Shown: positions 15,618 through 53,608 of the stretch, one piece after another
Layout: each line of letters starts with the position of its first letter
Position numbering within the stretch: position 1 is the stretch's first letter
Assembly (NCBI GenBank): GCA_041660005.1
Contig: JBAZXG010000003.1
Coordinates: 835 to 64,834 of the forward strand
DNA from: Patescibacteria group bacterium
Lineage (GTDB): Bacteria; Patescibacteriota; Patescibacteriia; GWA2-46-9
DNA length: 64,000 nt
Direction: 5' to 3'
The notes under the pieces: model-generated
Seen by the model: the letters and a program-made list of their open reading frames with translations, nothing else
The model's database searches: none
What the model was told of the DNA's origin: nothing
Made by a program: the position numbers and the translations under genes

Positions 15618-15620
15618 GAT

Positions 15621-15647
15621 TTAGCACTCTTAATATCAGAGTGCTAA
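15621..15647 (+). promoter_or_regulatory. CIRCE operator (TTAGCACTC-N9-GAGTGCTAA), HrcA binding site
   Basis: Perfect match to the CIRCE consensus inverted repeat with a 9-nt spacer, 10 nt upstream of the hrcA start. Confidence 0.9.
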
Positions 15648-15656
15648 CGCTTCATT

Positions 15657-16376: not shown

Positions 16377-16382
16377 TCTTTT

Positions 16383-16895
16383 ATGACAGACGGTTCAGAG
16401 CAGCAAACAAAAAAACAGTCGCTAGAAAAGCGCATTGAGGAACTCGAGGCAACCCTTAAGGAACATACGGCTGGTTGGCAGCGGGCACGCGCCGATTATC
16501 AAAACCTTAAGCGCGAGTCCGAAGAAAAACAGCATTCCTACGCTGATTTGACGAGACGCCGTATGTTGCAGGATTTGTTGCCAATTTATGATTTATTGAA
16601 GCGGGCAACAGAGACCACACCGGACGCTGAGCACGTCACATCTTGGATTAGCGGAGTTCAGCAAATTGTCACAACCTGGAAAAATTTATTAACGCGATGG
16701 CAGGTAACAACCATTGACACTGAAAACAAATCGTTTGATCCGTCACTGCACGAAGCAGTTGGCACTGACGGTAATATGCAGGTTGGTGCAATTGTAAAAG
16801 AGTTAGAGGGTGGTTATATGGTGAATGGTGTTCTCGTCCGTCCGGCAAAGGTTATCGTTGGTACAAAGGAAGAAGGCAAAAACAAAGCGAGCTAA
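16383..16895 (+). CDS. grpE: Nucleotide exchange factor GrpE
   Basis: 170 aa. Coiled-coil N-terminus and a GrpE C-terminal beta-domain (NGVLVRPAKV). Position between hrcA and dnaK. Confidence 0.85.
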   Translation: MTDGSEQQTKKQSLEKRIEELEATLKEHTAGWQRARADYQNLKRESEEKQHSYADLTRRRMLQDLLPIYDLLKRATETTPDAEHVTSWISGVQQIVTTWKNLLTRWQVTTIDTENKSFDPSLHEAVGTDGNMQVGAIVKELEGGYMVNGVLVRPAKVIVGTKEEGKNKAS

Positions 16896-16919
16896 TTTCA
16901 TTTATTAACCTCTATTATT

Positions 16920-17342
16920 ATGTCTCGACTAATTCGTTGGAGTCCCGTGGTTCCCGATTTCTTCGAGGACACAGAAAAGTTTCTCGAAGAATATGGACTA
17001 TCTGGTGCAGCCGTGCTACCGGTTGATATTTATCAAACCGAGGATAGCGTCATTGTCGAAACGCCACTACCCGGCATAGATCCCAAAAACATTGAAGTTT
17101 CTGTTGATCATAATGTTTTGACCATACGCGGGAAAGTTGAGCATAAAACTGAGATTGACGAGAAGAACTATTATCGAAAAGAAGTGCGTAGTAACTCGTA
17201 TCACCGTGCAGTTGCCTTGCCTGTTCATGTTGACCAGGCGAAAGCTGAAGCAGACTACAAGAATGGTATGCTCATTGTCCGGTTGCCGAAAGCGAGCGAA
17301 CCGAACACTAAGACAATTCAAGTTAAGCGTTCGACTGCCTAA
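16920..17342 (+). CDS. Hsp20/alpha-crystallin family small heat-shock protein
   Basis: 140 aa. Alpha-crystallin domain (VDIYQTEDSVIVETPLPGIDPKNIEVSVDHNVLTIRG...AEADYKNGMLIVRLPK). Confidence 0.85.
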   Translation: MSRLIRWSPVVPDFFEDTEKFLEEYGLSGAAVLPVDIYQTEDSVIVETPLPGIDPKNIEVSVDHNVLTIRGKVEHKTEIDEKNYYRKEVRSNSYHRAVALPVHVDQAKAEADYKNGMLIVRLPKASEPNTKTIQVKRSTA

Positions 17343-17350
17343 TCTTAATT

Positions 17351-17412
17351 CCTCTCCCTATTCAGGGAGGGGGATCCGGGTGAGCCTAGAGTACGACTCA
17401 GGGTTCACCCGG
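17351..17412 (+). terminator. Two tandem intergenic hairpins between hsp20 and dnaK, possibly an attenuator or processing site. No T-tract follows on the + strand.
   Basis: Hairpin cctctccc-tattca-gggagggg at 17351-17372 and ccgggtga...tcacccgg at 17376-17412. Confidence 0.3.
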
Positions 17413-17458
17413 GTCACAAAAAAGTTAACTATCTTTAAAGCAAATTAATCTAAAATCT

Positions 17459-19378
17459 ATGGCAAAAATAATTGGAATCGACCTTGGTACGACAAATTCG
17501 TGTGTAGCAGTTATGGAGGGAGGAGAGCCGAAGGTAATAGAGAACCGCGAAGGAAACCGGACGACGCCATCGGTTGTGGCGATGTCGAAAAATGGTGACC
17601 GCCTCGTGGGTCTTGTTGCCAAACGGCAAGCAGTAACGAATCCCGAGAATACGATTTTTTCAGTGAAGCGTCTCATAGGTCGACGGTTTGAGGAGGACGA
17701 AGTGCAGCGCGACATTAAGCTGATGCCGTACCGAATTTCTAAATCAGGCGACGGCATTAAAGTTGCTATGAGCGGCAAGGATTATACCCCTCAAGAAATT
17801 TCTGCCATGGTATTGCAGCAGCTCAAAGCTGATGCAGAAGAGCGTCTTGGGGAAAAAGTAACAGAAGCCGTCATTACGGTTCCTGCATATTTTAACGATG
17901 CCCAACGTCAGGCGACCAAAGATGCAGGTGAGATTGCAGGACTAAAAGTTCGCCGCATCATCAATGAGCCAACGGCTGCAGCACTTGCCTATGGGCTCGA
18001 CAAGAAAAAAGACCAAAAAATTGTTGTCTACGATCTGGGGGGCGGCACATTTGACGTTTCAGTGCTTGAGGTGGGAGACGACACCGTAGAAGTCAAGGCG
18101 ACCAATGGTGACACCCATCTTGGTGGCGACGATTTTGATCAGGCCATCATTGAATGGACGATTACCGAGTTCAAGAAGGACCAGGGCATTGATCTTTCAA
18201 AAGATCGTCTCGCCTTGCAGCGCATTAAAGAAGCAGCTGAAAAAGCAAAAATTGAATTGACCTCAGCTCCAGAAACTGAAATTAGCCAGCCGTTTATAAC
18301 TTCGGACGCTGCTGGACCAAAACATCTTAACATCAAGTTGTCTCGCGCTAAGCTCGAAGACTTGGTAGGGAAGCTCGTAGAAAAAACCCTTGAACCCTGT
18401 AAAAAAGCGCTGGCTGATGCAAAACTAAAGACAACGGATATTGATGAAATCGTCATGGTCGGCGGTATGACGCGTATGCCACTCGTGCAGCAAACGGTTG
18501 AGAAGTTTTTTGGGAAGAAACTGCACCTCGGTGTTAACCCTGACGAAGTTGTGGCTATTGGCGCCGCGGTACAGGCAGGCGTATTGCAGGGTGAAATTAA
18601 AGATGTGCTGCTTCTTGACGTAACGCCGCTCTCGTTTGGCATTGAAACACTTGGTGGCGTCATGACAAAATTGATTGAGCGCAATACCACCATTCCAACT
18701 TCAAAATCACAAGTTTTCTCAACGGCAGCTGACAGCCAAACTTCGGTAGAAGTGCACGTTTTGCAAGGAGAGCGTGAAATGGCTGCAGATAACAAGTCTC
18801 TTGGGCGCTTCATTCTTTCTGGTATCCCGGCTGCCCCACGCGGTGTTCCTCAAGTTGAAGTAAGCTTTGATATTGATGCTAACGGCATTCTGAACGTGAA
18901 AGCCGTAGATAAAGCAACCAACAAAGAGCAAACCATTACCATTACTGCTTCATCCGGGCTCTCTAAGGATGAAATCGAGAAAATGAAAAAAGATGCTGAA
19001 CTGCACGCCGATGAAGACAAAAAGCGTCGGGAACTCATTGAACTTAAAAATAGTGCAGACGGTCTTGTGTATTCAACAGAGAAAACCGTCAAAGAGGCTG
19101 GAGACAAGGTGGACGCTGAGGTAAAGAAGTCTGTCGAGGAAAAGGTAGAAGCATTGAAAAAGGTTAAAGAGAGCGAAGACATCGAGGCAATCAAAAAAGC
19201 GTTTGATGAACTTGGTACGGTTATTCAGAAAGTTGGTGCAGATCTCTACAAAGCGACGCAAAGCAATGAGGGTGCGCCAGCAGAAAAAAAGGAAGAGGGT
19301 CCTGTTGATGCGCATTATGAAGAGAAAAAAGATGATGAGCAGCCAAAGTCAACAGAAGAAAAATCAAATGATCTGTAG
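17459..19378 (+). CDS. dnaK: Molecular chaperone DnaK (Hsp70)
   Basis: 639 aa. [24 protein letters not shown], and an EEVD-like acidic C-terminus. Confidence 0.97.
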
Positions 19379-38670: not shown

Positions 38671-39564
38671 TTGATTATGCTCTTCAAAAAAGAAAACAAA
38701 ACTTTTGCACTTATCAATCCTGCGGTGGGTTTTACCCTCATTGAAGCATTGATTTCACTTGCGATTTTTACGTTCCTCAGCACAGTTGCTTTTGCCAGCT
38801 ATAAATCGTACGAACGCAGGCTGGTTATTCAGTCGGTAACTCAGGAACTGATCAGTGTTCTAGAAACAGCAAAAAACCGCACTATAGAATCTCTTAACGC
38901 TAGCTCTTATGGTGTACATTTATTACCAAATAGCTTTACTCTTTTTGGCGAAGGGAGTTATGTAGCTGGCAATCCTGCAAATGAGGTCCATCAAGTTCCG
39001 GCAGACGTCGAACTGTATGCAATTTCCGTGGGAGGCGGCAGCGACGTTATGTATGATCGGGTTCGCGGATCAACGGCGAACAGCGGCACTATCGGGATTC
39101 GTTTGGTTAGCGATCCCAACGTTGTAATGACCGTAAGTGTCCCCGCGCTTGCTCCGGTCGGTCTTCAGCACACTATTCAAACAGCAGGATCACGCCTTAC
39201 TGATGCACGCCATGTACACGTGACGCTTGGGTGGAGCATACAGAACGCAACAACTCTGGAGCTTGTTTTTAAGGACTCACCAAATCCAGATACGGTTGAG
39301 AATGTCGCAATTGCCAACTACTTGAATGCTGATCAAACAGTCTTTGATTGGGAGGGTACGCAGACTGTCAATGGTCAACCACAGGTAGTGCATATATCTT
39401 CGCACGAACTCAATGGGAGTAATACGATTTTATCGATTCGTCGCGATGGACGTTACAATAGTATAAATGTAGACATTAAAATTGACGGGCAAACGATTGT
39501 ATCTTACGGGAGCGATAATGAAGTTGTGCTTGGTGGTGCTGCTACCTCATTAGCAATACAGTAA
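38671..39564 (+). CDS. Type IV pilin-like protein (prepilin-type N-terminal cleavage/methylation domain)
   Basis: 297 aa. Class III signal ...AVG|FTLIEALISLAIF with G at -1 and E at +5. Confidence 0.75.
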   Translation: MIMLFKKENKTFALINPAVGFTLIEALISLAIFTFLSTVAFASYKSYERRLVIQSVTQELISVLETAKNRTIESLNASSYGVHLLPNSFTLFGEGSYVAGNPANEVHQVPADVELYAISVGGGSDVMYDRVRGSTANSGTIGIRLVSDPNVVMTVSVPALAPVGLQHTIQTAGSRLTDARHVHVTLGWSIQNATTLELVFKDSPNPDTVENVAIANYLNADQTVFDWEGTQTVNGQPQVVHISSHELNGSNTILSIRRDGRYNSINVDIKIDGQTIVSYGSDNEVVLGGAATSLAIQ

Positions 39565-39571
39565 CAGTAGT

Positions 39572-40093
39572 ATGGATAGACTAATAAAAAAACAATTTCA
39601 AACAGCATTTCCGAAAGGATTTGGCATGATTGAGTTACTCGCGGCTATGGCGCTCGCCATTTTTATTATACCGGGCATGCTGCAGTTTTCGTTTTCTATG
39701 ACTAGGATTATTAATGGGCAGGAGCGCAGGGTAGAGGCGGCCTACTTAGCTGAGGAGGGGATTGAAGCGGTTCGAACGATGCGCGATCGCAGTTGGTCAA
39801 CAACTATTGCAGGGCTGACTCTTAATACCGATTATTATCCTACCATTCAAAGTAACGTGTGGTCATTAAGTTTGACTGACCCGGGAGTACTCCTTGGTCG
39901 CTACACGCGCACGGTGAAATTGCAGAGTGTCAATCGAGATACGAGTAGTGACATTGTTGTGCCGCCAGCGGTTGGCGGAGTTGAAGACGCCGAAACCAGG
40001 TTCGTTAGCAGTACCGTTAGTTGGACAGAACCTGGTGGTGCGGTTCGTTCCTTAACGTTGCAAGCGTACTTAACGAATTTTTTAGCTAACTAA
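39572..40093 (+). CDS. Prepilin-type minor pilin / pseudopilin
   Basis: 173 aa. ...PKG|FGMIELLAAMALAIFII with E at +5. Confidence 0.65.
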   Translation: MDRLIKKQFQTAFPKGFGMIELLAAMALAIFIIPGMLQFSFSMTRIINGQERRVEAAYLAEEGIEAVRTMRDRSWSTTIAGLTLNTDYYPTIQSNVWSLSLTDPGVLLGRYTRTVKLQSVNRDTSSDIVVPPAVGGVEDAETRFVSSTVSWTEPGGAVRSLTLQAYLTNFLAN

Positions 40094-40100
40094 CCCGGCT

Positions 40101-40658
40101 ATGCTGTTAATTAAAAAAAGAAAACAGCAGCATCCGTTAGGCGTCTCATTGTTTGAGGTTGTTATTTATGTTGCTTTTTTCCTCGTTCTGACCATTTTAA
40201 TAACAAACGTTTCGACCCAGCTTATTGCCGTTAATCAAAATACACGAGCAACCAATGATATTATAGCGAGCGCGCGTTTTGCTGTTGATACTATTGCTCA
40301 AGAGGTGCGGCATGCTAAAAGTGTTTACTCTCCGACAAGTGTTTTTGATGTCAGTCCAGGTCAGTTAAGCTTAGAAACAACCCGAGATCTCCCCGACGGG
40401 GAAACATCTACGTTCGTCGATTTTTATATTGATACTGGACGGCTTTACTTGAGGCGGGAGGGTCAAGACCCAATTCGTTTGACGAGTGACAGCGTTATCG
40501 TTGAAGGGTTGACCTTTTCTTACTTGAATCAGTCGGTGCTTACGCCAGCAGTTCGAATGAGCATAACCGTTGCGAACTACGGCGCCAGTAGTGGTAATGT
40601 TAGTCATCGAACCATTACTCTTGTTACGACAGCCGCATTGCGTTCTTATGCGCAGTAA
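40101..40658 (+). CDS. Prepilin-type minor pilin / pseudopilin
   Basis: 185 aa. ...HPLG|VSLFEVVIYVAFFLV with E at +5. Confidence 0.65.
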   Translation: MLLIKKRKQQHPLGVSLFEVVIYVAFFLVLTILITNVSTQLIAVNQNTRATNDIIASARFAVDTIAQEVRHAKSVYSPTSVFDVSPGQLSLETTRDLPDGETSTFVDFYIDTGRLYLRREGQDPIRLTSDSVIVEGLTFSYLNQSVLTPAVRMSITVANYGASSGNVSHRTITLVTTAALRSYAQ

Positions 40659-42429
40659 TAGAGAACAACAAGTGCGTCGTTTTATAACTCCTTATCCTCA
40701 AGGTCAGGCAGCATTGGTGGCGACCATTTTTCTTTTTTTGATTGGAACAGCTATTGTAAGTACCTGGAGCACGATTTCTATTGCTACCATTAAAACCATT
40801 GCGGCGCTTCCGAATTCGCTGCAGAGTTATTACGTCGCAGAATCGGGTATTGAAGATAGTCTATTGCGGTTAACGAACAGTAATTATGCATTTGCCGCAA
40901 ACAATACTATTACCATAGGTGAAAGTTCTACCACGGTGAGTATTAATCAAGGGAGTCAGGGTGCGACCGTTACTTCAACAGGAATGGATAGTACGCTCGT
41001 ACGTAAAGTTGTTGTCGCACTGGAGACGAATACCGTTGGTGCCAGTTTCAGTTATGGCATACAGGTTGGTTCTGGAGGACTGACCATGCGCGATAATTCT
41101 GTGATAAACGGTAATGTGTATTCGAATGGTAGCGTTGTTGGGCAAAATCACGCTACGGTAACCGGGGACGTCATTGTGGCGTCTGGCGTGCCGAGCGAAC
41201 CGGATTCGGAGTATACCTATGCAAATGCCGACCACTCTTTTGCTTTAGCGAGCACTAATAAGGCAGCGGCACAGTCATTCAGACCTCTAGCCACAGGGCC
41301 TGTTACCCAGGTGGCAGTGAACATAGCGAAGGTAGGTACCCCAAACGATAATTTGAGAGTCCGTATAGTTTCTGACAATGGCAATAAGCCATCAGGCACG
41401 ACACTAACACAGGCGTCTATCCCGGCTTCAGTAGTTGGTACTGTATCTTCGTGGATCAACATTGGTTTTAGTGATACGCCAACGCTAACTGCAGGTACTC
41501 GGTATTGGGTGGACGTTGATAGTGGCACCAGTCACCCGAACAGTTATTGGAAATGGAGGAAAGACACCGGTGATACCTATGCAAGCGAAACAGCCATGTC
41601 TGCTAGTGGTTGTTGTTCGGGTAGCACGAATTGGTCAAATTTGAATGCTGATTTAGACTTTAAAGTTTGGGTTGGTGGTACACCAACCCGTATTGAAGGA
41701 ATGACCATCGGCGACACTACGGCAGGGAGCGGTCGAGCGAACGTATTTGTAGATAGCACTATTCATGGCTCGCCCTGCCCGAACAGCTATTGCATTATAG
41801 ATTCACCAGCGCCAAGTACCATGCCTCTGTCTGGAGGGAGTATAGATGCGTTCCTTGATCAAGCCGCACAAGGAGACATCTGCGCACCGCCGATATGCAA
41901 CAGTAATGGCGATCTCATTCGTACTGGCAAAGGTAGCTCGGCCACGATTGGGCCAATGGTCATAAATGGCGATCTCAAGCTGTTTGACTATAGTTCACTT
42001 ATACTTACGGGTACGGTTCGAGTGATGGGAAACATAGATTTCAACAATCATTGCACGGTTACCCTTGACGAAAGCTATGGCTCTGGCGATGGCGTTATCG
42101 TAGCCGATGGCTGGATTAACGTAGCGAATAACTGCTCGTTTGCCGGTTCAGGTCAGATAGGCAGCTATCCACTGGTGCTGTCCATGTACCCGGACGGCGA
42201 AGACCGGCCAGCCATTGATCTCAATAATCATGCCGACGGAGTCGTTTTCTATGCAAGTGAGGGCACAATTGAGATAAGCAACAATTCAACGGTAAATAGT
42301 TTGGTTGGGTATGCCATCAGTATAAAAAACAACGCAACTATTACCTACGACAGCGGCTTGCTCGATATGAGTTTTGAGAGTGGCCCGACTGGTGGCTTTA
42401 CTATCAGTAGTTGGAAAGAGGAGCAATAA
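40648..42429 (+). CDS. Large pilus-associated protein (PilX/PilY1-like tip or minor component?) with N-terminal hydrophobic segment
   Basis: Track ORF 40570..42429, but residues before the ATG at 40648 overlap the previous gene out of frame. After M(40648) comes the hydrophobic helix ALVATIFLFLIGTAIVSTW, then a roughly 550-aa Gly/Ser/Thr/Asn-rich beta-type domain. Fourth gene of the pilin cluster. Confidence 0.55.
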   Translation: MRSNREQQVRRFITPYPQGQAALVATIFLFLIGTAIVSTWSTISIATIKTIAALPNSLQSYYVAESGIEDSLLRLTNSNYAFAANNTITIGESSTTVSINQGSQGATVTSTGMDSTLVRKVVVALETNTVGASFSYGIQVGSGGLTMRDNSVINGNVYSNGSVVGQNHATVTGDVIVASGVPSEPDSEYTYANADHSFALASTNKAAAQSFRPLATGPVTQVAVNIAKVGTPNDNLRVRIVSDNGNKPSGTTLTQASIPASVVGTVSSWINIGFSDTPTLTAGTRYWVDVDSGTSHPNSYWKWRKDTGDTYASETAMSASGCCSGSTNWSNLNADLDFKVWVGGTPTRIEGMTIGDTTAGSGRANVFVDSTIHGSPCPNSYCIIDSPAPSTMPLSGGSIDAFLDQAAQGDICAPPICNSNGDLIRTGKGSSATIGPMVINGDLKLFDYSSLILTGTVRVMGNIDFNNHCTVTLDESYGSGDGVIVADGWINVANNCSFAGSGQIGSYPLVLSMYPDGEDRPAIDLNNHADGVVFYASEGTIEISNNSTVNSLVGYAISIKNNATITYDSGLLDMSFESGPTGGFTISSWKEEQ

Positions 42430-43824: not shown

Positions 43825-43859
43825 GTTATTATTTAAACATTGTGGTATAATCTCATCAT

Positions 43860-44066
43860 ATGTTGCAATTATTTTATAAGAGAACTAAGGGTCTAGATTA
43901 TTGGGACGTGAAGTTTGTCGGTTGTGCTGGTATGGTACTTGCTTTTATGCTCGTTCGTTTCATTCCTGAACTTGTTGACGTCAATTTTTGGTGGTGGATT
44001 AGTGTTTTTGTGCTTTTTTTACTAAGACCCTCTTATCATTTTTGGATTCAGCCTTCTAATAAATAA
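43860..44066 (+). CDS. Hypothetical small membrane protein (68 aa, 2 TM)
   Basis: Hydrophobic ORF directly upstream of the giant surface protein gene. Confidence 0.35.
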   Translation: MLQLFYKRTKGLDYWDVKFVGCAGMVLAFMLVRFIPELVDVNFWWWISVFVLFLLRPSYHFWIQPSNK

Positions 44067-44073
44067 AACTGTC

Positions 44074-47000
44074 ATGGCCGTGCGCCAGCGTCGAGCTGTT
44101 CCTAATTCTAGAAGTAAAAAGATACATCGAGATAAATTTTCGGTGTCGTTTCGTATTCAGGCAGCTGTCCTTGGAGTAGTGATATTACTGGGCGTACTGG
44201 TAAACAACATTAAATTCGGAGAGAGCGCACAGTCAACTTTTCAGCAGACAAGCTGGACGGGTCAATCGAAGGGAACCACTGAAGTCACTACTTCCCCATG
44301 GGTTGATTTTTCAACTACTGATGCTAGTGACGCTAATATCGACAGAACGTCTGGTCTTCGGTTGAAATATACCTCCTCGTCGCAGTCGGTAACAACAAAA
44401 GCCGCCTTTGATGCTGCAAGTCCTTTGTACACCAAAACGAAATCAGTAAGCGGTTCAGGAGACGATGGCTCAGTGCAGCTTGACGGTGATGCCGCATGGG
44501 TGCCGCTAAGTACGCAGTCAAGTTTGGGCGCTCTTACTAATGGCAGTGTTCTGGCGGCCGATGGTTCGCGCTACCTTTACGCAGTCGTAGGAGGCGCAAA
44601 AACTTTATACCGTTTTGACACGACAGCAGCGTCACCCAGTTGGACGTCACTTGGTAACTATCCTTTTACCGATGTTTCAAACCAAGGAGCAGCCATGGTG
44701 TATGCAAATAATGCTTTGTATTTAAACAATGGCACTGGTAAAGGCATCTACCGCTATACCATTAACGCTAACGGTTCTGGATCGTGGAGTACGCTCGGGG
44801 CTGTGAAAGATGCTTATTATAATTTTGGCGCCGGTGGGGGACTAGTATGGAATGGCGGTAATTATATCTACCACGTAAGTGGTTATTATGCTGGCCCTTC
44901 TTTTGAAGTTTATTCAATTAGTGCGAACACCTGGACAAAACTTAGTAATTCTCCTGTGGGTGTGGCTGATGGAAGTGCTTTTGCTTATGATACGGTTTCG
45001 CAGGCGCTCTACCTCGGTATAGGCGGCACCGCTTCTATTTATCGGTTTAAACCTGTAAATCCGAATAGTCCCGCCTTGAGTGATAGTTGGCAGCAGACGG
45101 TTTACGCAAGCCTACCAGTCACGCTAGGTCTCGGGTCTTTATTTATATCCGGACCGTCTGGGTCAATTTATGCACTGACCGGCGGATCAGCAGGAAACTT
45201 TCTTAAAAGTGCTTCCAATGGGTCGTCGTGGGCAACAATTGTTCCTGCGCTTGGCGCTATGGCAAAGGGTGCTGGCGGAATCTATATAGCGAACAGTGGT
45301 CGATTTTATGCCTTTAGGGGCGGAGCTGCGGAATTAGATACCTGGAAGGCAATGCCTATAGCGCCGGCATTCGGTACCTACGAATCTGGTGCGATAGACT
45401 TTAGTGCAGCGCGACGGTTCACGAGCGTTCAGTTGGATAGCGATATTCCGTCCGGTACTTCAATGACGCTCGAGGTGCAAGCGCGACAGACTGCTACGAG
45501 TGCCTGGAGTGCTTGGTCACCCATTACAATCACGAGTAACAGTGGTTCACTCAGCGCCAGCGATTATCAGGGAGTTCAGTACCTGAAGTTTCGCATAACG
45601 TTAAGAACAAATAGCTCTACTGTGACACCGAAACTGCGCGGTATTACATTTAGCTACGCTAACTATGCTACGAGTACCTACCTTGATTCGTCACCCTATA
45701 AAATGGGTACTACTGCTCAAGGTCCCGCCATTGTACAGCTCAAGTGGAGAGAAATTATCCCCGCAGCGTCAAACACTACGGTGAGATTACAGTTAAGGAC
45801 CAGGAGTACAAAAGATTTTACCGATGGGGTGAGTGGTGATAAATGGTATGGTTCTGGAAACACCGAAGGAGAGGTATTTACGGCGAGTAATAGTGGATGC
45901 ACGAGAACACCGGTGAGTGGAAATGAATATGAAGTAAGCTGTAATGTGAATGCTACGAGTCCGCTTAATAATTCCAGTACGTCGTACGTTCAGTATAGAG
46001 TTAAATTAGATTCACCTGATGCAAACGCAACTCCAACCGTAACCAGCGTATCCGTTGTTTATGATATCAATGCTTCGCCTGTTGTCAGTAATGTTACTGT
46101 CGTCGGACAGGATGCATCTGGTCTTGCGACATTTACCTATAAAGTCATTGACAACGATGCAGCGGATTCGAATTTTGCTGTTGGGCTCTATTATGATCTT
46201 GGTATTCGTTTGCCCTCAAGTATTGGCAGCGGCGTTGGTTCAATCACTGTCTCTGTTCCTGGCACTGCACAGCTTTCCGCATTGCTACCCCCCGATGGAG
46301 TACTGCTCATTGAGAACGAGCAGATTCTGTATCGTACGATTTCCGGAAATCAGTTCGTCATAGATACAGCGTCTGATCGTGGTGCTTTCCAAACAATTGC
46401 AACAGCGCACAACCCCGGGGGAACACCATTGACGGTCTGGATTCGAGCTACTGATTCTGAAGTTGGTAATAAGTTCAATGTCCAATCGTATGTAAATGGT
46501 GACGTAGGTAGTAGTGTCAGCTGCACGAGCAAATTCACTCCTTGTTCAAAAACGATTACTTGGCGCCCGGCTTTGGATCTTACCGCCAAGGTTTATTTGT
46601 CTGGTCAAAATATTAAAGTTGCTGCTAATGACAAGCATGCAGTTAATAGCGTTGGCGGCGCAGCTTTGGTGTCGCCAGCAACGTTTACGCTGGACACTAT
46701 AGCTCCACAGCTCTCAGCTACGCCAATGAGAATTGTCGGTAGTGCGGTTGCTGGGACAACAACGGGGTTAAAATCATCTACAAAAAGTGTTGCCTTAGCG
46801 ATCGAGTCTCCAAACGTGACTGGTGACAATCCATTGTCTAGCACAAAGTATTCAGTGTGTGACGAAGTGACTGGAAGCGGGACGTGCGGCACATTTTCAG
46901 TGGATGCATCTGGAGGAGTACCATCCGGATGGTTAGCGTTGAGTTCGTTTAGCAACTTAACTTCATGTCCTGCATTATCTCCAACGCTTCCACCTTTAGG

Positions 47001-50000
47001 TAGTGGTGTTAGCTGTTCTTCATTTGTGCTTGCTGGTGCAGGAGAGCGCACTGTTCAATTCGCTGCAGTGGACAACGTTGGTAATAGTAAGCGTGGAAGT
47101 GCGGACATCATTGTTGATCAAACGCCGCCGGTAACACCAGCCAACTTTTCTGCACAGGATGCTTCGAACCAGACAGTTGGAGCTCTCGTTTACCTGCGAT
47201 GGGATGCGCTTACTCCAGCGAGCGTTACCGACGCATCAGGAAACGGAGATTTTGCTCAGTACCTTATTTATAGAAACAATAGGGCAGACGCTAGTTCAGG
47301 GTGCAGTTCCTCAGCAACAACTTTTTGTTTGCTGACAAAGGTAACGAATATCGTGACCGGAACTTTTGCCGATTCAGACGTGGCTGCTGCAACGAGCTAT
47401 CAGTATAAAATTATTGCTGAAGACAATATTGGGAACGATTCGTCAACGCTTAGTAGTGCAACACCGACTTCAGCCGTAACACCGACGCCTGCCGGACAGG
47501 CCGTCGCGCCGACCCCACAAATAACCAATGTCGTTCTTGGTACGCCTGATACAAGTTCAGTCAAGGTTAGTTGGGATACAACAAATTCTGTTAGCGACGC
47601 ATCCGTTATTTACGCTGGTACAGCAAGCGCACCTGTTAGTTTTTCCGGTTATCCCTCTCAGGGTGACCCTACGGTTACCGATACGCATACGGTTACTCTT
47701 GTTGGACTGTCGGCCGATACAACCTATTATTTACAGCTTCGTTCTGTTGCACCCGGAAACGATACACCGGGGACCTATCCAGGCGCCGGACAGCCGGACT
47801 TAATGTTTAAAACAAAACCATTACCGCTCGTAGAGCGCCCAACCATTACTCCGGGATCTCCCTTGGTGTCACCAAATGAGACAAGTGCGGTGTTCAAGTG
47901 GACGACCGGAAGTAGCGAGTCAGCTTCTGATTCTTTTGTTGAATACGGCTTGAATTCGGCCCTTGGTTCTTACTATGGGACTCGGGCAACAGGTGTGGTT
48001 CACGACGTAATTGTTCCCGCGTTAACATCGGCAACAAAATATTTCTTCCGTGTGCGCTCAGCTATTCCGGGTGGCGGCGAAAAAGCGTACCCGACAACTG
48101 CACCGGATCCAGAAATGACGCCGCTTGATTTTACGACACTGCAACCGACGAACGATACAACCGCTCCAGAGCCGACCAATATACAGGTTCCTTCTCAGTC
48201 AGTTAGCGATACAACCGCAATTGTCACTTGGCACACCTTGGAACCGGCGGTGCCTTTTGTTGAATTTTGGCGAGTAGACGATCCAACAACGCACCGGGTA
48301 CTACCGTCGACTCCCGGGGACGAAACATCCAGTGCTAGTATTCTTTTGTCCAGTCTTGATCCAGATACAGAGTATCAGTTCATTGCCATTTCAAGAGATG
48401 CTGCGGGTAATTCTGGCAGGTCCGCGGTTCAGCCGTCATTCAGAACCAGCAAAGATCCACGCTATACTTCTGATCCAGTCATTACGACGATTCACAACGA
48501 TCCTGCAGGTGTCTCTACCGTTACTATCTACTTCAACACTGACCAGGCGACCACTGCCGTTGTTCGTTACTCTTCAGATACTGATCCAACACCATACTCT
48601 CGGTCGCAAAGTTTTCCGTCGTTTGTTGAGGGGGAGCATGCAGTCACACTTCTTGGATTAACTTCAGGGACACCGTACGTTTATAAGGTTGAGACAACGA
48701 ACCCAAGCGGTGGCAATGCTTCTAGTAGCAACTGTAGCGGTGTAAGTGACAGCTGTAGTTTTGCGACTAACATAGCACAAGGTGAGCTGCCGGACATCAT
48801 TGTTCCGTCTATCAGAGTAACGAAAGATGCGGACAAGGCAAATCTTGTCACTATCTCGTGGGAAACAAGTCAGGCGGGAAATTCGCTTGTTGAGTTTGGT
48901 CAAGACGCCGTTGACGGAGTGCCGCAATACGGCAGAACGTTTGGGTTTGTGCGCGACAGCGCCACTATTCACTCTGTTACCTTGCCGAATGACCTACTAG
49001 AGGGTCAAACTTATTACTTCCGTCTACGGACCGAGGATAGAGCTGGCCAGTTAGCAGTATTTCCAGTGACTGCCGATCTCACTGATACGTCATGTAATAA
49101 CCCAAATCCTGCCGCTAGTACTTGTAAAAACCCGACGTTTAGCACAGTCGACACTGGACTTGTCCAGATCGGTGAAAAAATTAGTCCGCCAGTCATTACC
49201 GGAGTTGCCCCGCTACTTGTCACAAATACGAAAGTCGTTATTGGATGGACAACGGATAAACCAGCGACTTCTGAAGTCTTTCTTGGCACTTCAACACTTT
49301 TTGCATCAGACCCAACAGCGTCAGACGACACACTGACAACAGTGCACGCAGTAACCATTGACGGCTTGCAGTCAAGTACGCCATATTATTTCGCTATCGC
49401 TTCAGTTGATAGAAATAAACAACGGCAATCGGATGACAATAAGGGAGAGGCGTACACTTTTACAACAAATGCGGGGACTAAAATTGGCGATAATCAGGGT
49501 CAACAAGGGGTACAGGGTGTTGTGAAAACAGATCTTTTGCCACCGGTGATCTCGGGTATTAGCGTTACTGGTATTACAGATTTTGGAGCCACTATAACCT
49601 GGGTAACCAATGAACATGCGACATCGCTCGTGCAATATGGCGAAGATACTACCTACGGTTCAATTTTTGGGGATTCAGCGAATCTGACTTCTGAGCATTC
49701 TGTAACGTTGGTCGGCCTTACTGGCGGCACACAATATCATTTCTCGATTATCGCCTATGACGGAGACGGGAACCGCGCATTTAGTTCTGACGATACTTTT
49801 ACAACAACCGGGGAGCCGGGCAAAAAAGAGGAGACCGATACAGAGAAAACCGACAAAAATAAAACTGACAAAGAGCAGAATACAGAAAAAACCAATGATA
49901 CTGAAAATGCAGACACATTGACGGCTATTGAAAAAACGATTCGTGAGCTGAGCCAGGATAAGCAATTGTCATTGCAAAAAATTATCGAACTACTAAAAGA

Positions 50001-51030
50001 CTTTGACGAAACAGATGCCTCGAAGATTCTTGACACCGTCGGTCTACAAATGGTTGCACCACCGCAATTTGTTGGTGGTGCTCCTCGGGTAACGGTAACC
50101 ACTGATTCCGCGACCATTCACTGGACGACAGATAAACCGTCGGACAGTCGTATCGCTTTTGCTAGCGATCTCGATTATGCGCCAACGGCAAGTGATCCCT
50201 ATGGAATAGAAATAGGGGACACTGAAACATATATAAGGGACCATGAAATCGTCATTTCAAATTTAACGCCCAATACGGTCTATCATTATCAGGTGCGTTC
50301 TCGGGAGCGTGTCGGTAGATCAGCGCGTTCCATCGATAGGACTTTTAAAACATTAGCGCTGCAACCGGAAATCAAAAAATTAGCAGTAGGTAAAGTGACA
50401 GAGAATAGTATTACCTTAACCTGGCGAACAAATGTTCCTGTCAAATCAGTAATTAGTTATACAAATAAAACCACCAAAGAAGAACTTTCTCAGGGGAATC
50501 CTCAGTTTTTAACCTTACACAGTTTCGAATTGAAGAATTTGAACGGGGACACTCTCTATACTATGCGGGTTGTTGTTGAAGATGAATCTGGTTTAACGTC
50601 TACGTCGGAGGTAATAAGTGCAAGAACCACCAAGGATGAAAAGCCTCCCGTCATTGATCAAGTACGAACCGAGGTGAGCTTGGCAGGCGAAGAGGGAAGT
50701 TTTGCGCAAGCTATTGTTTCATGGAAAACCGACGAACCATCTGCATCGCAGATTGCCTTCGAAGAAGGGATTACAAAATCGGATACACTCGCCAATAGTA
50801 CGGAGTTACTGTCGGAGCTTTCTTTAAGCCATGTCATGGTACTGGGTAAGTTGCGCCCGGCGACAGTCTATCGTTTCCGGGTTCTTGGTAGCGACTCGTC
50901 TGGTAATAAAGCTGCGTCGCGTGACTACACTTTACTAACACCTCAAAGGAAGCAGTCGGTTTTGGGAATCATCATTAATAATTTTGAGCAGACCTTTGGG
51001 TTCTTGCGTTTCCTTGGGTGGTCGCCGTAA
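44074..51030 (+). CDS. Giant cell-surface protein (2318 aa): signal anchor, Kelch-like beta-propeller, about 10 PAP_N/FN3-like repeats, K/E/T-rich acidic linker, C-terminal hydrophobic segment
   Basis: Single uninterrupted 6.96-kb ORF. The N-terminal TM is VLGVVILLGVLV. Six Kelch-like blades each contain Y-x-[YA]-x-[GR]-G (YLYAVVGG, YIYHVSGY, LYLGIGG, IYALTGG, FYAFRGG). The repeat signature V-x-[IV]-x-W-x-T-x3-[AS]-x-S-x-V-x-[YF]-G recurs about 10 times. Low-complexity linker ...KKEETDTEKTDKNKTDKEQNTEKTND.... The 3' end overlaps the following ABC ATPase gene by 13 nt. Confidence 0.85.
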   Translation: MAVRQRRAVPNSRSKKIHRDKFSVSFRIQAAVLGVVILLGVLVNNIKFGESAQSTFQQTSWTGQSKGTTEVTTSPWVDFSTTDASDANIDRTSGLRLKYTSSSQSVTTKAAFDAASPLYTKTKSVSGSGDDGSVQLDGDAAWVPLSTQSSLGALTNGSVLAADGSRYLYAVVGGAKTLYRFDTTAASPSWTSLGNYPFTDVSNQGAAMVYANNALYLNNGTGKGIYRYTINANGSGSWSTLGAVKDAYYNFGAGGGLVWNGGNYIYHVSGYYAGPSFEVYSISANTWTKLSNSPVGVADGSAFAYDTVSQALYLGIGGTASIYRFKPVNPNSPALSDSWQQTVYASLPVTLGLGSLFISGPSGSIYALTGGSAGNFLKSASNGSSWATIVPALGAMAKGAGGIYIANSGRFYAFRGGAAELDTWKAMPIAPAFGTYESGAIDFSAARRFTSVQLDSDIPSGTSMTLEVQARQTATSAWSAWSPITITSNSGSLSASDYQGVQYLKFRITLRTNSSTVTPKLRGITFSYANYATSTYLDSSPYKMGTTAQGPAIVQLKWREIIPAASNTTVRLQLRTRSTKDFTDGVSGDKWYGSGNTEGEVFTASNSGCTRTPVSGNEYEVSCNVNATSPLNNSSTSYVQYRVKLDSPDANATPTVTSVSVVYDINASPVVSNVTVVGQDASGLATFTYKVIDNDAADSNFAVGLYYDLGIRLPSSIGSGVGSITVSVPGTAQLSALLPPDGVLLIENEQILYRTISGNQFVIDTASDRGAFQTIATAHNPGGTPLTVWIRATDSEVGNKFNVQSYVNGDVGSSVSCTSKFTPCSKTITWRPALDLTAKVYLSGQNIKVAANDKHAVNSVGGAALVSPATFTLDTIAPQLSATPMRIVGSAVAGTTTGLKSSTKSVALAIESPNVTGDNPLSSTKYSVCDEVTGSGTCGTFSVDASGGVPSGWLALSSFSNLTSCPALSPTLPPLGSGVSCSSFVLAGAGERTVQFAAVDNVGNSKRGSADIIVDQTPPVTPANFSAQDASNQTVGALVYLRWDALTPASVTDASGNGDFAQYLIYRNNRADASSGCSSSATTFCLLTKVTNIVTGTFADSDVAAATSYQYKIIAEDNIGNDSSTLSSATPTSAVTPTPAGQAVAPTPQITNVVLGTPDTSSVKVSWDTTNSVSDASVIYAGTASAPVSFSGYPSQGDPTVTDTHTVTLVGLSADTTYYLQLRSVAPGNDTPGTYPGAGQPDLMFKTKPLPLVERPTITPGSPLVSPNETSAVFKWTTGSSESASDSFVEYGLNSALGSYYGTRATGVVHDVIVPALTSATKYFFRVRSAIPGGGEKAYPTTAPDPEMTPLDFTTLQPTNDTTAPEPTNIQVPSQSVSDTTAIVTWHTLEPAVPFVEFWRVDDPTTHRVLPSTPGDETSSASILLSSLDPDTEYQFIAISRDAAGNSGRSAVQPSFRTSKDPRYTSDPVITTIHNDPAGVSTVTIYFNTDQATTAVVRYSSDTDPTPYSRSQSFPSFVEGEHAVTLLGLTSGTPYVYKVETTNPSGGNASSSNCSGVSDSCSFATNIAQGELPDIIVPSIRVTKDADKANLVTISWETSQAGNSLVEFGQDAVDGVPQYGRTFGFVRDSATIHSVTLPNDLLEGQTYYFRLRTEDRAGQLAVFPVTADLTDTSCNNPNPAASTCKNPTFSTVDTGLVQIGEKISPPVITGVAPLLVTNTKVVIGWTTDKPATSEVFLGTSTLFASDPTASDDTLTTVHAVTIDGLQSSTPYYFAIASVDRNKQRQSDDNKGEAYTFTTNAGTKIGDNQGQQGVQGVVKTDLLPPVISGISVTGITDFGATITWVTNEHATSLVQYGEDTTYGSIFGDSANLTSEHSVTLVGLTGGTQYHFSIIAYDGDGNRAFSSDDTFTTTGEPGKKEETDTEKTDKNKTDKEQNTEKTNDTENADTLTAIEKTIRELSQDKQLSLQKIIELLKDFDETDASKILDTVGLQMVAPPQFVGGAPRVTVTTDSATIHWTTDKPSDSRIAFASDLDYAPTASDPYGIEIGDTETYIRDHEIVISNLTPNTVYHYQVRSRERVGRSARSIDRTFKTLALQPEIKKLAVGKVTENSITLTWRTNVPVKSVISYTNKTTKEELSQGNPQFLTLHSFELKNLNGDTLYTMRVVVEDESGLTSTSEVISARTTKDEKPPVIDQVRTEVSLAGEEGSFAQAIVSWKTDEPSASQIAFEEGITKSDTLANSTELLSELSLSHVMVLGKLRPATVYRFRVLGSDSSGNKAASRDYTLLTPQRKQSVLGIIINNFEQTFGFLRFLGWSP

Positions 51031-52391
51031 TTATGCGAGAGTCGATTATTAAAATCACTGATGTTTGCGTTACTTATAATCAGGGTAAGCTCGGGGAAAC
51101 GAACGCACTGAAAAGTGTTAGTTTAGAAATATTTCCCGAGGAGTATGTGATTTTTTTTGGGCCGTCTGGTTGCGGAAAGTCGACACTGCTTTACACGATG
51201 GCAGGTCTTGAAACGCCGAACAGCGGAGTAGTTAATGTTGCGGGCAAAGATTTAGCGAAGTTGCCAGCGCGTGAGCTTGTTCAATACCACCGGACAAAAT
51301 TGGGCATGATTTTTCAGGCGTTCTATTTAATTCCGTCACTTAGCGTGCTTGACAATGTAGTACTGCCGCAGATGTTTATTCGAAAAGCACCGCATGAACG
51401 TAAAGAACATGCTATGCAGGTGCTGAAAAGGTTTGGCATTGATCAGTTTGCCGACCATTTACCAACCGAACTTTCTGGCGGACAGCAACAACGCGTGGCC
51501 ATCTGCAGGGCGGTAATGAATAACCCCGATATTGTTTTTGCTGATGAGCCAGTAGGAAATCTTGATTCTGTGGCTTCTGAGAAAGTTATGGAACTTCTTT
51601 ATGAACTAAACTCAAAAGATAAAAAAACTGTCGTTCTGGTTACCCACGACTCTCGTTATTTGCGTTTTGCTCATAGAATAATCTACCTGAGGGATGGCGA
51701 GATAGTGCGCGAGGTAACCAATACAGAACGTTTACAGCTGCGTGAGGAGAAAATTAAGCCTTTTGTGCCACACGCGCTTGAAGAGTTTGCTCGGTACTAT
51801 CCAAACCTTGGTGAGTCTGAGCTTAAGGCAAAATTTTTAAGTCATTATTTGCTCGACCTAGCGGAAGAACGTCTGCAGGAGCGATTAGAAACACTTGTTC
51901 ACAAGCGCACCGTTGGTGAAGTTACCCGAGAACAATTTATTTCCCGAGCCAATACGCCATTTATTGAAGGCGGCGTCGGCCTCTATGAGCAAACTGCCGA
52001 GCATATTGCTGACAATCTTGATGCGGTTTTGGAGGAGTCGCGCTTTATTAGGGAGCATTTTAAGAACTTTCCTGAAAGTTATGAACTTTTGCAGCAGGGA
52101 ATTGCTCGCCTCAAGGCTCGTCTTTTGGAGCATTACCACGGCCATTTGACTCAAGAACAAAGCGATCGACTTGATCAAAGTATTAAAGCTCGGCTTGAAG
52201 GGTCTTTAGACCATCGACAGCTGAAAGATGTTCTTGATCGTCCTTTTAAGGATGGCGGTGTCGGGCTTCATTATCAAACTGCTCAAGATTTTGGTAGACG
52301 CCTTGAGGTTTACTTGATTGATTACAGTACTGAGGCGCCTAAAGTGACGGATGTCGTTCAGGAGACGGCATTGCAAGGTAAAATTCTATGA
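51018..52391 (+). CDS. ABC transporter ATP-binding protein (MacB/LolD/FtsE-like) fused to a roughly 220-aa C-terminal extension with internal repeats
   Basis: Residues 1-230 carry Walker A GPSGCGKST, the Q-loop, signature LSGGQQQRVAICRA, Walker B IVFADEP and H-loop VTHD. The C-terminal half is non-ABC and contains the repeated motif PF[IK](E/D)GGVGL(Y/H)(E/Y)QTA(E/Q) at two positions. Confidence 0.8.
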   Translation: MVAVIMRESIIKITDVCVTYNQGKLGETNALKSVSLEIFPEEYVIFFGPSGCGKSTLLYTMAGLETPNSGVVNVAGKDLAKLPARELVQYHRTKLGMIFQAFYLIPSLSVLDNVVLPQMFIRKAPHERKEHAMQVLKRFGIDQFADHLPTELSGGQQQRVAICRAVMNNPDIVFADEPVGNLDSVASEKVMELLYELNSKDKKTVVLVTHDSRYLRFAHRIIYLRDGEIVREVTNTERLQLREEKIKPFVPHALEEFARYYPNLGESELKAKFLSHYLLDLAEERLQERLETLVHKRTVGEVTREQFISRANTPFIEGGVGLYEQTAEHIADNLDAVLEESRFIREHFKNFPESYELLQQGIARLKARLLEHYHGHLTQEQSDRLDQSIKARLEGSLDHRQLKDVLDRPFKDGGVGLHYQTAQDFGRRLEVYLIDYSTEAPKVTDVVQETALQGKIL

Positions 52392-53608
52392 TGCGACCCC
52401 TTGATCTTCTCCAACTTTCAACGCGTATGTTTAAAACGCGACCCATGCGCACCTGGCTGACGATCCTTGGTGTTGGCGTAGGCATTGCGGCAACGTTTTT
52501 TCTCGTCAGTCTTGGGTATGGCTTGCAGACATTACTATTTAATCAAATAACTACTTCAGAGTCTCTCTTGAGTCTTGATGTCTACCCACCCGACTCCAAT
52601 ATCGTTCCATTGAATGATGCACTACTGCGAACAATAGAAGAGATGCCATCAGTTAACGAAGTCAGTCCCGTGGCGAACCTCCCGGCTCAGATAACACTGA
52701 ATGGTTTTACTGGAGATACTCTTGCCCAAATTGTTACTCCATCGTTCTTTAAGCTTGATGGTCTCAAGACACAATATGGTTCATTTTTCACTGCATCGGA
52801 CACTAAACAGGTCGTGGTAAGTTCAACGGTTTTGAAACTTTTGAATATTGAACCCGCTGAGATTATAGGAAAATCCCTTGATATTACTTTCTTTTTGCCA
52901 CCCGTGCCGGCAGCCGATCATAGTGTTTCAACGCCCGGGCAAGCTGAAGTGAACGTTCAGCAGCAGCGGACGCTGACGGTTGTCGGCGTAATTCAAGATG
53001 ACCTTTCAAGCCAAATTTATCTTTCCTATGATTCGCTACCTGAATTTCGTCCGTCAGTATACACGCAGGCAAAGGTTAGAGTTGCCTCAACCGATGTTCT
53101 CGATGATGTTCGCCAGAAAATTAAGGAGAACGGTTTAACCGTTGTTGCATTGTCGGACACCATTGCTGAGGCGACAAAAATATTTAAAGCTATTCAAATA
53201 ATTTTAGCTCTTTTTGGTATCGTGGCTCTGGTAGTGGCTGCCATCGGTATGTTCAATACGGTTACGATTGCACTACTGGAAAGAACTCAAGAGATTGGTA
53301 TTATGCGTTCGATTGGCGCAGCGCGGGCAGATATGATGGTAATGTTTTTAACGGAGTCTGCCTTAATGGGTTTCTTTGGAGGTGTGACTGGCCTCATCAT
53401 GGGATACGTTGGTGGAGAAGTTTTCAATTGGCTGCTGAATATTTTAGCCACACGCCTCGGTAGTCCTCCTTTGCAGCTTTTCGTTCGTCCATTGTGGTTT
53501 ATTTTGACCATTGCGGTGTCCTCCGCATTTATCGGATTGTGCACAGGTATTTTGCCGGCACGACGAGCTGCCAAGCTTAATACTCTGGAAGCGCTGCGCT
53601 ACAAGTAG
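52388..53608 (+). CDS. ABC transporter permease, FtsX/MacB-like (4 TM with a large periplasmic domain)
   Basis: 406 aa. An N-terminal TM, a periplasmic domain of about 200 aa, and a C-terminal FtsX 3-TM bundle. Overlaps the ATPase gene by 4 nt. Confidence 0.8.
   Translation: MMRPLDLLQLSTRMFKTRPMRTWLTILGVGVGIAATFFLVSLGYGLQTLLFNQITTSESLLSLDVYPPDSNIVPLNDALLRTIEEMPSVNEVSPVANLPAQITLNGFTGDTLAQIVTPSFFKLDGLKTQYGSFFTASDTKQVVVSSTVLKLLNIEPAEIIGKSLDITFFLPPVPAADHSVSTPGQAEVNVQQQRTLTVVGVIQDDLSSQIYLSYDSLPEFRPSVYTQAKVRVASTDVLDDVRQKIKENGLTVVALSDTIAEATKIFKAIQIILALFGIVALVVAAIGMFNTVTIALLERTQEIGIMRSIGAARADMMVMFLTESALMGFFGGVTGLIMGYVGGEVFNWLLNILATRLGSPPLQLFVRPLWFILTIAVSSAFIGLCTGILPARRAAKLNTLEALRYK

Follow-up and report, generated by a model that had tools for sequence, protein, structure and literature searches.

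The stretch of DNA analysed here, 64,000 nucleotides from a Patescibacteria group bacterium (contig JBAZXG010000003.1 of assembly GCA_041660005.1; the window in what follows), carries at positions 43860-53608 four consecutive open reading frames (ORFs) on the + strand: a small ORF, a giant gene whose product bears repeats of the Pur_ac_phosph_N/FN3 type, an ATP-binding cassette (ABC) ATPase and a permease. The products of the last three most likely act jointly as a single machine of the cell surface, and the coupling of the three genes is well supported. We propose that they form a three-gene module of Patescibacteria in which an FN3 stalk, exported by Sec, would be engaged through a conserved C-terminal tail by a dedicated type VII ABC complex; the cleavage of the signal peptide, the contact between tail and permease and the work done on the tail are the parts that we infer, and we put the probability of the whole proposal at about one half. 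The components are of known kinds, and what is new is the class of partner and the appendage of the ATPase on a type VII ABC complex. Searches of the full-text literature turned up no account of the module. All four ORFs are already held in public collections, the giant as NCBI MFA5954431.1 on a 154-kb contig, where it is annotated as 'hypothetical protein'.

The preliminary description of this DNA, made from the sequence alone, had taken the ABC pair to be functionally tied to the giant and not to be a generic drug exporter. This is strongly supported, as the trio stays together while its flanks change and is found without an adaptor; the further ideas, that the giant might be a host-attachment factor and that the pair might display or remodel it, are conjecture. 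We compared 11 contexts of the ATPase, which carries an unusual C-terminal extension; ten of these are genomic places that were looked up and one is a locus (L009) from a genome scan. A Pur_ac_phosph_N/FN3 protein of 1152-2902 amino acids (aa) lies directly 5' and a permease with MacB_PCD and FtsX domains directly 3' in 10 of the 11. The ATPases of these contexts are 41-82% identical to that of the window and the intergenic gaps measure 2-67 nt, and the outer flanks differ at every context (DEAD helicase, mechanosensitive channel, HrcA-GrpE-DnaK, ribosomal proteins, tRNA synthetases and others). Every FN3 protein of the 10 linked contexts for which DNA was at hand was found to end in the tail.

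The survey was also run in reverse, as a metagenome scan that started from the alignment of the giant C-terminus and gave 78 loci, in which the tail, the nucleotide-binding domain (NBD), the extension, the permease and FN3 were located with hidden Markov models (HMMs). It returned 34 non-redundant tail-bearing genes, 30 of them with at least 1.4 kb of downstream sequence, and in 24 of these 30 an ATPase follows directly 3' of the tail-bearing gene, always in its extended form and with the permease next. At L119 the pair stands beside the tail-bearing gene in the order permease-ATPase, and at L125 a MacB-type pair made of a short ATPase and a permease lies 5' of it. Two tail-bearing giants are arranged in tandem ahead of a single extended-ATPase/permease pair at L168. 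A scan of genome contigs from the ATPase alignment picked up generic ABC-core patterns, for the most part in unrelated ABC ATPases, and L009 was its sole relevant locus. The source labels of the members, available as taxonomy for few loci, are Uhrbacteria, Falkowbacteria, Parcubacteria, Paceibacterota and 'Patescibacteria group'. We propose a new family, the tail-bearing FN3 partner proteins of Patescibacteria, defined by a signal peptide, an FN3 array, a helical linker, three FN3 repeats and a TPxxxESVLxxIIKNFExxFG[FW] tail, encoded beside an extended ATPase and a MacB-type permease. The window protein belongs to it by its match to the tail HMM (E 3e-21) and its 7+3 repeat layout, together with the match of its neighbour to the extension HMM (E 4e-78) and the presence of the permease.

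The FN3 protein from signal peptide to tail

The giant gene (44074-51030; ORF call and Pfam; this and all further features lie on the + strand) encodes an FN3-stalk protein of 2318 aa. Colinear orthologues were found in the closest relative, Candidatus Uhrbacteria CG10 (GCA_002793855.1, here L001; 66% identity over the full length of 2310 aa), and at L002 (42%) and L004 (43%). In independent assemblies the orthologue is likewise unbroken and colinear, at 2310, 2305 and more than 2444 aa. A repeat-driven assembly artefact, which the preliminary description had named as a possible refutation, was rejected: misassembly is very unlikely because the 7-kb gene has no DNA-level repeats beyond one 18-nt tandem repeat, and the orthologues are intact. 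That repeat (1.9 copies, 47460-47494) lies in a Thr/Pro-rich spacer just before FN3 repeat 1.

The conserved core of the protein consists of an FN3 array, a linker of ~100 aa, three further FN3 repeats and a terminal tail of ~30 aa. The N-terminal ~1100 aa vary from lineage to lineage, whereas the last ~420 aa, and the tail with them, are conserved. Minimal complete versions of 486-667 aa exist, made of a signal peptide, one FN3, the linker, three FN3 and the tail, and some of them adjoin the ABC pair; for this reason, we regard the C-terminal ~500 aa as the core unit and the giant size as an elaboration of it.

The preliminary count of about ten PAP_N/FN3-like repeats was reproduced in two ways. 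Pur_ac_phosph_N (PF16656) matches the giant in 10 stretches (E 8.7e-58, 193.3 bits against a cut-off of 30), with fn3 (PF00041) also well above its cut-off (E 8.3e-34, 116.1 bits against 25), and a custom repeat HMM likewise gives 10 repeats in a layout of seven, linker and three. By Pfam and the repeat HMM, the first seven span aa 1160-1904 (47551-49785); the three C-terminal repeats (aa 2010-2282, 50101-50919) are the most widely conserved part of the array. The linker between them (aa 1905-2009, 49786-50100) begins as acidic K/E/T-rich low complexity, as noted earlier (aa 1901-2000 hold 23 D+E and 14 K+R), and continues into a conserved element, …LSxxKQLSLQKIIDxLKxF…ILxxxG…, which we read from its sequence as helical. 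The ten repeats of the window pair 1:1 by position with those of L002 and L004, and repeats 7-10 do so even with those of L006. Because this one-to-one correspondence by position holds even between distant members, the FN3 array appears to be old and stable, and by this measure it is unlike a fast-evolving repeat array of the adhesin type. The giants of episymbionts of the candidate phyla radiation (CPR) and DPANN (for example large FN3, FhaB or DUF2341 proteins; Absconditicoccaceae, Patescibacterium) share with the window giant a very large size, a signal sequence, a richness in Ig/FN3 domains, adhesion-type heads and a reduced-genome host. However, they are reported as lineage-specific, fast-evolving and without a conserved partner system, whereas the window giant has stalk repeats with 1:1 orthologues, two conserved termini and an ABC pair that travels along.

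In fact, both ends of the protein are conserved and the middle varies, in such a way that proteins with unrelated heads share the motif YTFxQTDWSGG near their N-terminus. The first 52 residues (44074-44229) have the structure of a Sec signal peptide, with a basic n-region, an h-region at aa 28-44, which is the sole strongly hydrophobic segment of the giant, and a predicted cleavage site ESA/QS. In the complete orthologues, AXA-type sites occupy the aligned position (ALA/AS, SRA/IT, AYA/AT, IQA/AT and SEA/QS). As they stand directly before the conserved mature motif, the N-terminus is probably a cleavable Sec signal rather than the signal anchor of the preliminary description. The motif, for which the alignment gives the family consensus YTFxQTDWSGG, is found behind the signal peptide in 12 complete members of the family; its window version, QSTFQQTSWTGQ (44230-44271), comes directly after ESA.

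Between the mature N-terminus and the repeats, the giant carries a probable six-bladed Kelch-like beta-propeller head (aa ~150-440, 44521-45393), predicted from the spacing of six hYhxxGG blade motifs at aa 168, 215, 265, 312, 365 and 411, that is, every 46-53 residues. The Kelch propeller proposed earlier is suggested by its regular blade motifs and by family member L169, where Kelch propeller matches exceed the threshold, but in the giant itself all Pfam Kelch models stay below threshold (Kelch_3 17.2 bits against 22, Kelch_4 15.1 against 21.6, Kelch_6 13.4 against 25.3, and Kelch_1 likewise). The precomputed annotation of L001 has a faint Beta-prop_Calicin match. The lineage-variable middle (aa 441-1159, 45394-47550) has no Pfam family above threshold; its segment aa 438-695 is common to L007, and one canonical-looking fn3 lies at ~aa 1030-1135. 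The heads differ between lineages: L169 has a propeller, as has the window giant, L007 has FG-GAP, and Laminin_G_3/DUF2341 occur in L168 and in a JGI contig. At L168 (positions 1-21290) it is the tail-confirmed giants that carry the DUF2341 and Laminin_G_3 heads, and a third FN3-rich giant downstream has a near-identical N-terminus and a C-terminus that lies beyond the locus. On L007, a Parcubacteria-type contig, a protein of 1594 aa with DUF2341, Calx-beta and CarboxypepD_reg (12750-17534) is encoded directly 3' of the permease. A word-indexed protein search with aa 1-1050 of the giant gave no matches, and one with the C-terminal profile gave proteins of at most 728 aa; the index may under-retrieve long proteins, since nothing longer came back although the giant (P0121) and an orthologue (P0122) are cluster representatives.

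The tail (aa 2283-2318, 50920-51027; TPQRKQSVLGIIINNFEQTFGFLRFLGWSP) is a conserved amphipathic motif and our candidate for the handle of the ABC complex. In 36 non-redundant sequences, all of which have it at their very C-terminus, the consensus reads lTPq+xEsVlxlIIkNFExtFG[FW]l+, and the hydrophobic moment of the tail ranges from 0.35 to 0.57, the upper value being reached in orthologues; the 99th percentile of sequence windows along the giant is 0.47. What had been described as a hydrophobic C-terminus is thus an amphipathic tail, as the maximum 19-residue Kyte-Doolittle mean is 1.07 and no C-terminal transmembrane (TM) segment was found in the giant. The search for a sortase motif that had been suggested came out negative, the LPXTG-type pattern [LN]Px[TSA][GNA] being absent anywhere in the giant, and LPXTG/sortase anchoring is ruled out by the missing motif together with the missing C-terminal TM segment. 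No NCBIfam sorting-signal model matches the tail, and no Pfam or NCBIfam model covers it. Paralogues that do not adjoin an ABC gene (L090, L095, L112 and L120) have kept the tail, so its conservation is not a by-product of the start of the downstream gene.

With the known C-terminal sorting systems (LPXTG/sortase, PEP-CTERM/exosortase, type I secretion systems (T1SS) and the C-terminal domain of type IX secretion) the family shares a short terminal motif on diverse proteins and several paralogues per genome that use one nearby machine. The window tail differs from those signals in having no TM helix, basic tail or LPXTG, and the machine in the module is an ABC mechanotransducer, whereas in the sorting systems it is a transpeptidase or a secretion channel.

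The extended ATPase and the class of the permease

The ATPase (P0001, 452 aa; 51033-52391) comprises an NBD at aa 1-232 and a duplicated helical domain at aa ~240-436. Its coordinates and those of the other three ORFs (43860-44066, 44074-51030, 51018/51033-52391 and 52388-53608) agree with the preliminary description, except for one detail. The reported 13-nt overlap of the giant and the ATPase depends on the GTG at 51018, which starts the longest ORF. It is an effect of that choice, because the deposited 452-aa protein and the N-termini of the family align at the ATG at 51033, and thus the ATPase most likely starts at this ATG, 2 nt past the TAA of the giant. The 4-nt overlap of ATPase and permease is real and reads ATGA.

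Pfam identifies ABC_tran in the ATPase. The NBD belongs to the LolD/MacB/FtsE clade by NCBIfam, in agreement with the MacB/LolD type assigned earlier; the nearest models are LolD, MacB, DevA and FtsE, all far below their curated cut-offs. Foldseek places MacB, MJ0796, FtsE, YbbA and LolD closest to it (root-mean-square deviation 1.3-2.0 A), and the residues of Walker A, Q-loop, signature (LSGGQ), Walker B-E and H-loop are invariant in the family alignment.

The ATPase is about twice the usual length, and this is due to a C-terminal extension of ~200-220 aa that was overlooked in the preliminary description. The family alignment and an AlphaFold2 (AF2) model resolve it into two helical repeats of ~90 aa (51750-52340). 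In 39 aligned homologues with 41-82% identity it is a tandem duplication of one ~90-aa helical module, with an invariant GG(V)GL…TA loop closing each copy. AF2 gave pLDDT 86.6 for the whole ATPase, with a low-confidence linker or hinge at aa 238-243, and pLDDT 90.4 and pTM 0.83 with nine helices for the extension alone. Foldseek against the PDB found no structural relatives of the extension (best E ~1, TM-score below 0.25), and profile searches of Pfam and the PDB gave compositional matches only. An exhaustive phmmer search of 1.84 billion cluster representatives with the extension matched, at E<=1e-3, 189 clusters (50% identity), of which 76 reach E<=1e-10; many of the matches are short fragments, and in the full-length ones among the matches listed it forms the C-terminal part of proteins of ~430 aa or longer. 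The extension is an undescribed domain, which no Pfam or NCBIfam model covers. Its GGVGL…TA loops resemble the helix-hairpin-helix pattern hxxhxGhGxxxAxxh, and this identity was tried and rejected: no helix-hairpin-helix model of Pfam matches even at E<=5, the spacing from G to A is off by two residues, and Foldseek returned no protein of that class. Some ATPases of the family (P0013, P0019, P0023 and the P0031-P0050 range) are 545-779 aa long, with sequence beyond the duplicated domain, and in the aligned members P0013, P0018, P0019 and P0023 this additional sequence is Pro-rich.

The permease (406 aa; 52388-53608) has TM1 at aa 24-42, a MacB_PCD region at aa ~43-270 and an FtsX domain at aa 271-406. 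The FtsX-like permease of the preliminary description is confirmed by two Pfam matches above threshold, MacB_PCD (PF12704; E 2.1e-23, aa 22-247) and FtsX (PF02687; E 2e-19, 70.2 bits against a cut-off of 25.5, aa 275-398). As TM2 lies at aa 271-289, a large extracytoplasmic domain is enclosed between TM1 and TM2. The solved sequences closest to the permease are YtrF (9o9x, 4e-27), MacB, Spr0695 (1e-17) and LolF/LolC; solved FtsX matches weakly (aa 229-339, E ~1e-4), outside MacB_PCD. The nearest NCBIfam models are ADOP, MacB and LolCE, far below their curated cut-offs.

On the strength of its FtsX, MacB_PCD and NBD matches we assign the pair to the type VII (MacB/FtsX fold) ABC superfamily. 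It falls short of every named member for which a curated model was scored: 195 bits against 966 for the MacB equivalog, 181 against 264.85 for FtsE (TIGR02673), 35-49 against 225-255 for the FtsX models, 204 against 307.75 for LolD (TIGR02211) and 68 against 362 for lolCE (TIGR02212). An HlyD-type adaptor was found neither in the window module nor among the called genes of the 9 loci whose sequence runs beyond the module at either end. Type VII ABC complexes have no transmembrane substrate channel and transmit movement to an extracytoplasmic domain, and their partners are dedicated and often encoded nearby, as EnvC/PcsB, LolA with lipoproteins, MacA-TolC and TesA (PMC5985334, PMC12646458, PMC11466899).

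The module has in common with FtsEX-EnvC/PcsB, LolCDE-LolA, MacAB-TolC and YbbAP-TesA the 4-TM FtsX build with a large extracytoplasmic domain between TM1 and TM2, an ATPase of the LolD/MacB/FtsE clade and a candidate partner encoded alongside, as in ybbAP-tesA. It departs from them in that the partner is an FN3-stalk protein of 0.5-3.6 thousand aa with a conserved tail, that there is no membrane-fusion protein (MFP) adaptor, LolA-like acceptor or hydrolase, that the ATPase has a duplicated helical domain of ~200 aa present in no solved member, and that the window proteins miss all curated equivalog cut-offs. The closest solved permeases, those of B. subtilis YtrEF and S. pneumoniae Spr0694-0695, come likewise from single-membrane envelopes and have NBD and TM domains on separate chains; YtrF, however, aligns only with the C-terminal TM part of the window permease (aa 231-404). 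Spr0694-0695 is tied to an MFP (Spr0693), neither it nor YtrEF is tied to an FN3 giant, and their ATPases lack the extension, unlike that of the window. The function of YtrE2F2 is listed as 'Unknown' (PMC11466899).

Proposed mechanism and its alternatives

We envisage that the big protein would be exported by Sec, that its signal peptide would then be removed, and that it would be held at the cell by the C-terminal tail. The permease would engage this tail on the outer side of the membrane, through MacB_PCD or through the TM1/TM2 stalk. Binding and hydrolysis of ATP in the cytoplasm would then be turned, via the permease, into mechanical work on the tail handle, such that the fibre is held and actuated or an amphipathic anchor is pulled from the membrane, and no substrate would cross the bilayer. 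In this arrangement the variable head would be the distal tip and the conserved tail the base. The FN3 protein is taken as the extracytoplasmic partner, and its tail as the handle, because the adjacency is conserved and the special ATPase is restricted to these loci, and also because one pair is common to several tail-bearing paralogues, the protein grades from a conserved base to a variable tip, and it starts with a Sec signal.

A bolder version would see in the module a hitherto unrecognised surface organelle of many Patescibacteria, an FN3 fibre with an exchangeable ligand-binding tip whose tail, as a new kind of docking signal, is held by a type VII mechanotransducer, acting as an ATP-powered adhesin for host attachment; the helical ATPase domain would gate the ATP hydrolysis that actuates, retracts or releases the fibre. 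The genomes in which this was sampled are labelled Uhrbacteria, Falkowbacteria and Parcubacteria/Paceibacteria, and we offer the idea as speculation that is rather unlikely to hold in full. The Pam pilus of CPR (bioRxiv 10.64898/2026.03.03.709456) is similarly CPR-restricted, built of Ig-like folds and found via operon conservation. It consists, by contrast, of small pilins polymerised by donor-strand exchange with membrane-anchored chaperones, involves no ABC pair and occurs chiefly in Saccharimonadia and Microgenomatia.

Several observations weigh against the proposed module. The linkage has exceptions: the ABC pair without the giant was looked for and found in one of the 11 contexts only, the Falkowbacteria contig L009, whose extended ATPase has no giant upstream, and for 4 of the 30 tail-bearing genes with enough flanking sequence the DNA at hand shows no ABC pair. 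As the loci of the survey were collected by pattern-based scanning, the fractions given here are not an unbiased census. The tail of the window is modestly amphipathic, its moment of 0.35 lying in the top ~5% of sequence windows of the giant, and in the family, conservation rises only moderately from the adjacent FN3 domain to the tail (mean pairwise identity 0.39 and 0.47). The cleavage site in the window is non-canonical, with E at position -3.

The genes could also be co-located for regulation only, an ordinary exporter or resistance pump of the MacB/YknYZ/HrtBA type (for a lipid, peptide or small molecule) sharing its operon with an independent surface adhesin or envelope protein as both serve the envelope. 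The exceptions to the linkage in both directions, tail genes without a pair on one side and L009 on the other, would fit such an arrangement, most type VII pairs of Bacillus have no known partner (PMC11466899), and a physical interaction of giant and pair is something that we infer. Yet the adjacency outlasts a complete turnover of the flanks, with ATPase identities of 41-82% and gaps of 2-67 nt, the ATPase is of the extended variant in all 24 downstream cases, and at L168 a single pair serves two or three paralogous giants; we hold this explanation to be unlikely, though it deserves to be kept in mind. A variant of our own proposal would have the pair work by a Lol-like release. The C-terminus of E. 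coli PBP5 is an in-plane amphipathic membrane anchor. If the tail were an anchor of this type, the pair might extract it, and the protein would be shed or passed to the wall, the S-layer or a host surface. The moment of the tail, up to 0.57 in orthologues and so beyond the 99th percentile of giant windows, speaks for this, as does the fact that LolCDE and YbbAP pull hydrophobic moieties from the outer leaflet (PMC12646458). Against it, a conserved LolA-like acceptor is absent from the surveyed modules and the tail in the window reaches merely 0.35; extraction and static docking look the same on current evidence, and we find release by extraction doubtful.

Two further explanations take the pair for a known machine. 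It might be the FtsEX of the lineage, with the FN3 protein as an extracellular effector of peptidoglycan hydrolysis at division: the FtsE and FtsX models score low but significantly, MurJ lies directly downstream in the window, and ftsE/ftsX are routinely annotated in papers on Patescibacteria. The scores are, however, below the cut-offs given above, the permease has MacB_PCD and its matches to solved FtsX are weak and outside that domain, Pfam finds no hydrolase, LytM or coiled-coil activator domain in the giant, and MurJ adjoins the module only in the closest relative, which makes an FtsEX-type wall system very improbable. Alternatively, the tail could be an uncleaved secretion signal and the pair could translocate the giant as in type I secretion, since a conserved motif that ends the protein, together with an ABC ATPase gene beside that of the substrate, is reminiscent of T1SS operons. 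This is extremely improbable, considering that the family has N-terminal Sec signals, which T1SS substrates lack, that the permease is a 4-TM FtsX/MacB protein and not an ABC_membrane exporter, with a fold that has no channel (PMC5985334), and that membrane-fusion and outer-membrane components are missing. Both the FtsEX-like and the type I-like explanations are disfavoured because specific tests of membership come out negative for them.

Little is known of how ultra-small episymbionts attach to and interact with their hosts, and the majority of their large surface proteins look lineage-specific and do not lend themselves to comparison. The module supplies markers, namely the tail motif, the ATPase domain and a fixed gene order, that allow one to detect such proteins in Patescibacteria, to count them and to compare them. 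If the proposed tail-engaging module is true, type VII mechanotransmission would gain a fifth kind of extracytoplasmic partner, and the module would be the first type VII system with a large cytoplasmic appendage on its ATPase.

The small ORF and the surroundings of the module

The small ORF ahead of the giant (43860-44066; 68 aa, ORF call and hydropathy) has the two hydrophobic segments reported earlier. Orthologues were detected by tblastn directly 5' of the giant in L001 (60% identity, E 6e-20) and L093 (52%, E 4e-21) and were not seen at the remaining module loci; the ORF thus appears to be a lineage-specific accessory gene kept in the nearest relatives only. It has no Pfam or NCBIfam match, and the JGI name 'AgrB' is on that account unsupported. 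An extended -10-like promoter element, TGGTATAAT (43843-43851), was read from the sequence 8 nt ahead of the start codon (ATG) of this ORF, and in L001 the same element lies 7 nt ahead of the orthologous ORF. The operon probably starts at this element, and its mRNA would be leaderless or near-leaderless. The consensus promoter scan left the element out as a -35 match is absent; the promoter and terminator consensus scans were uninformative, with counts at the level of shuffled sequence.

Synteny between the window and L001 extends from the upstream pseudopilin-like genes through the downstream glycosyltransferases. MurJ, LepA and RecJ, which lie 3' of the module and outside it, are syntenic in L001 only. 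On the 5' side, four consecutive + strand ORFs (38671-42429; 297, 173, 185 and ~574-619 aa) encode proteins with hydrophobic, pseudopilin-like N-termini. The first of them matches the N_methyl prepilin motif and the last, of ~600 aa, has an orthologue at the same place in L001, 5' of an RNase gene; the group looks like a set of type IV pilus minor pilins situated just 5' of the module. Nearly all ORFs longer than 120 aa in the window (1-64000) are on the + strand and the cumulative GC skew climbs monotonically, a strong co-orientation of genes that is presumably with replication. A separate ABC importer is encoded at 7422-9908, with an NMT1-type binding protein, a BPD_transp_1 permease and an ATPase of 232 aa, which is of normal length.

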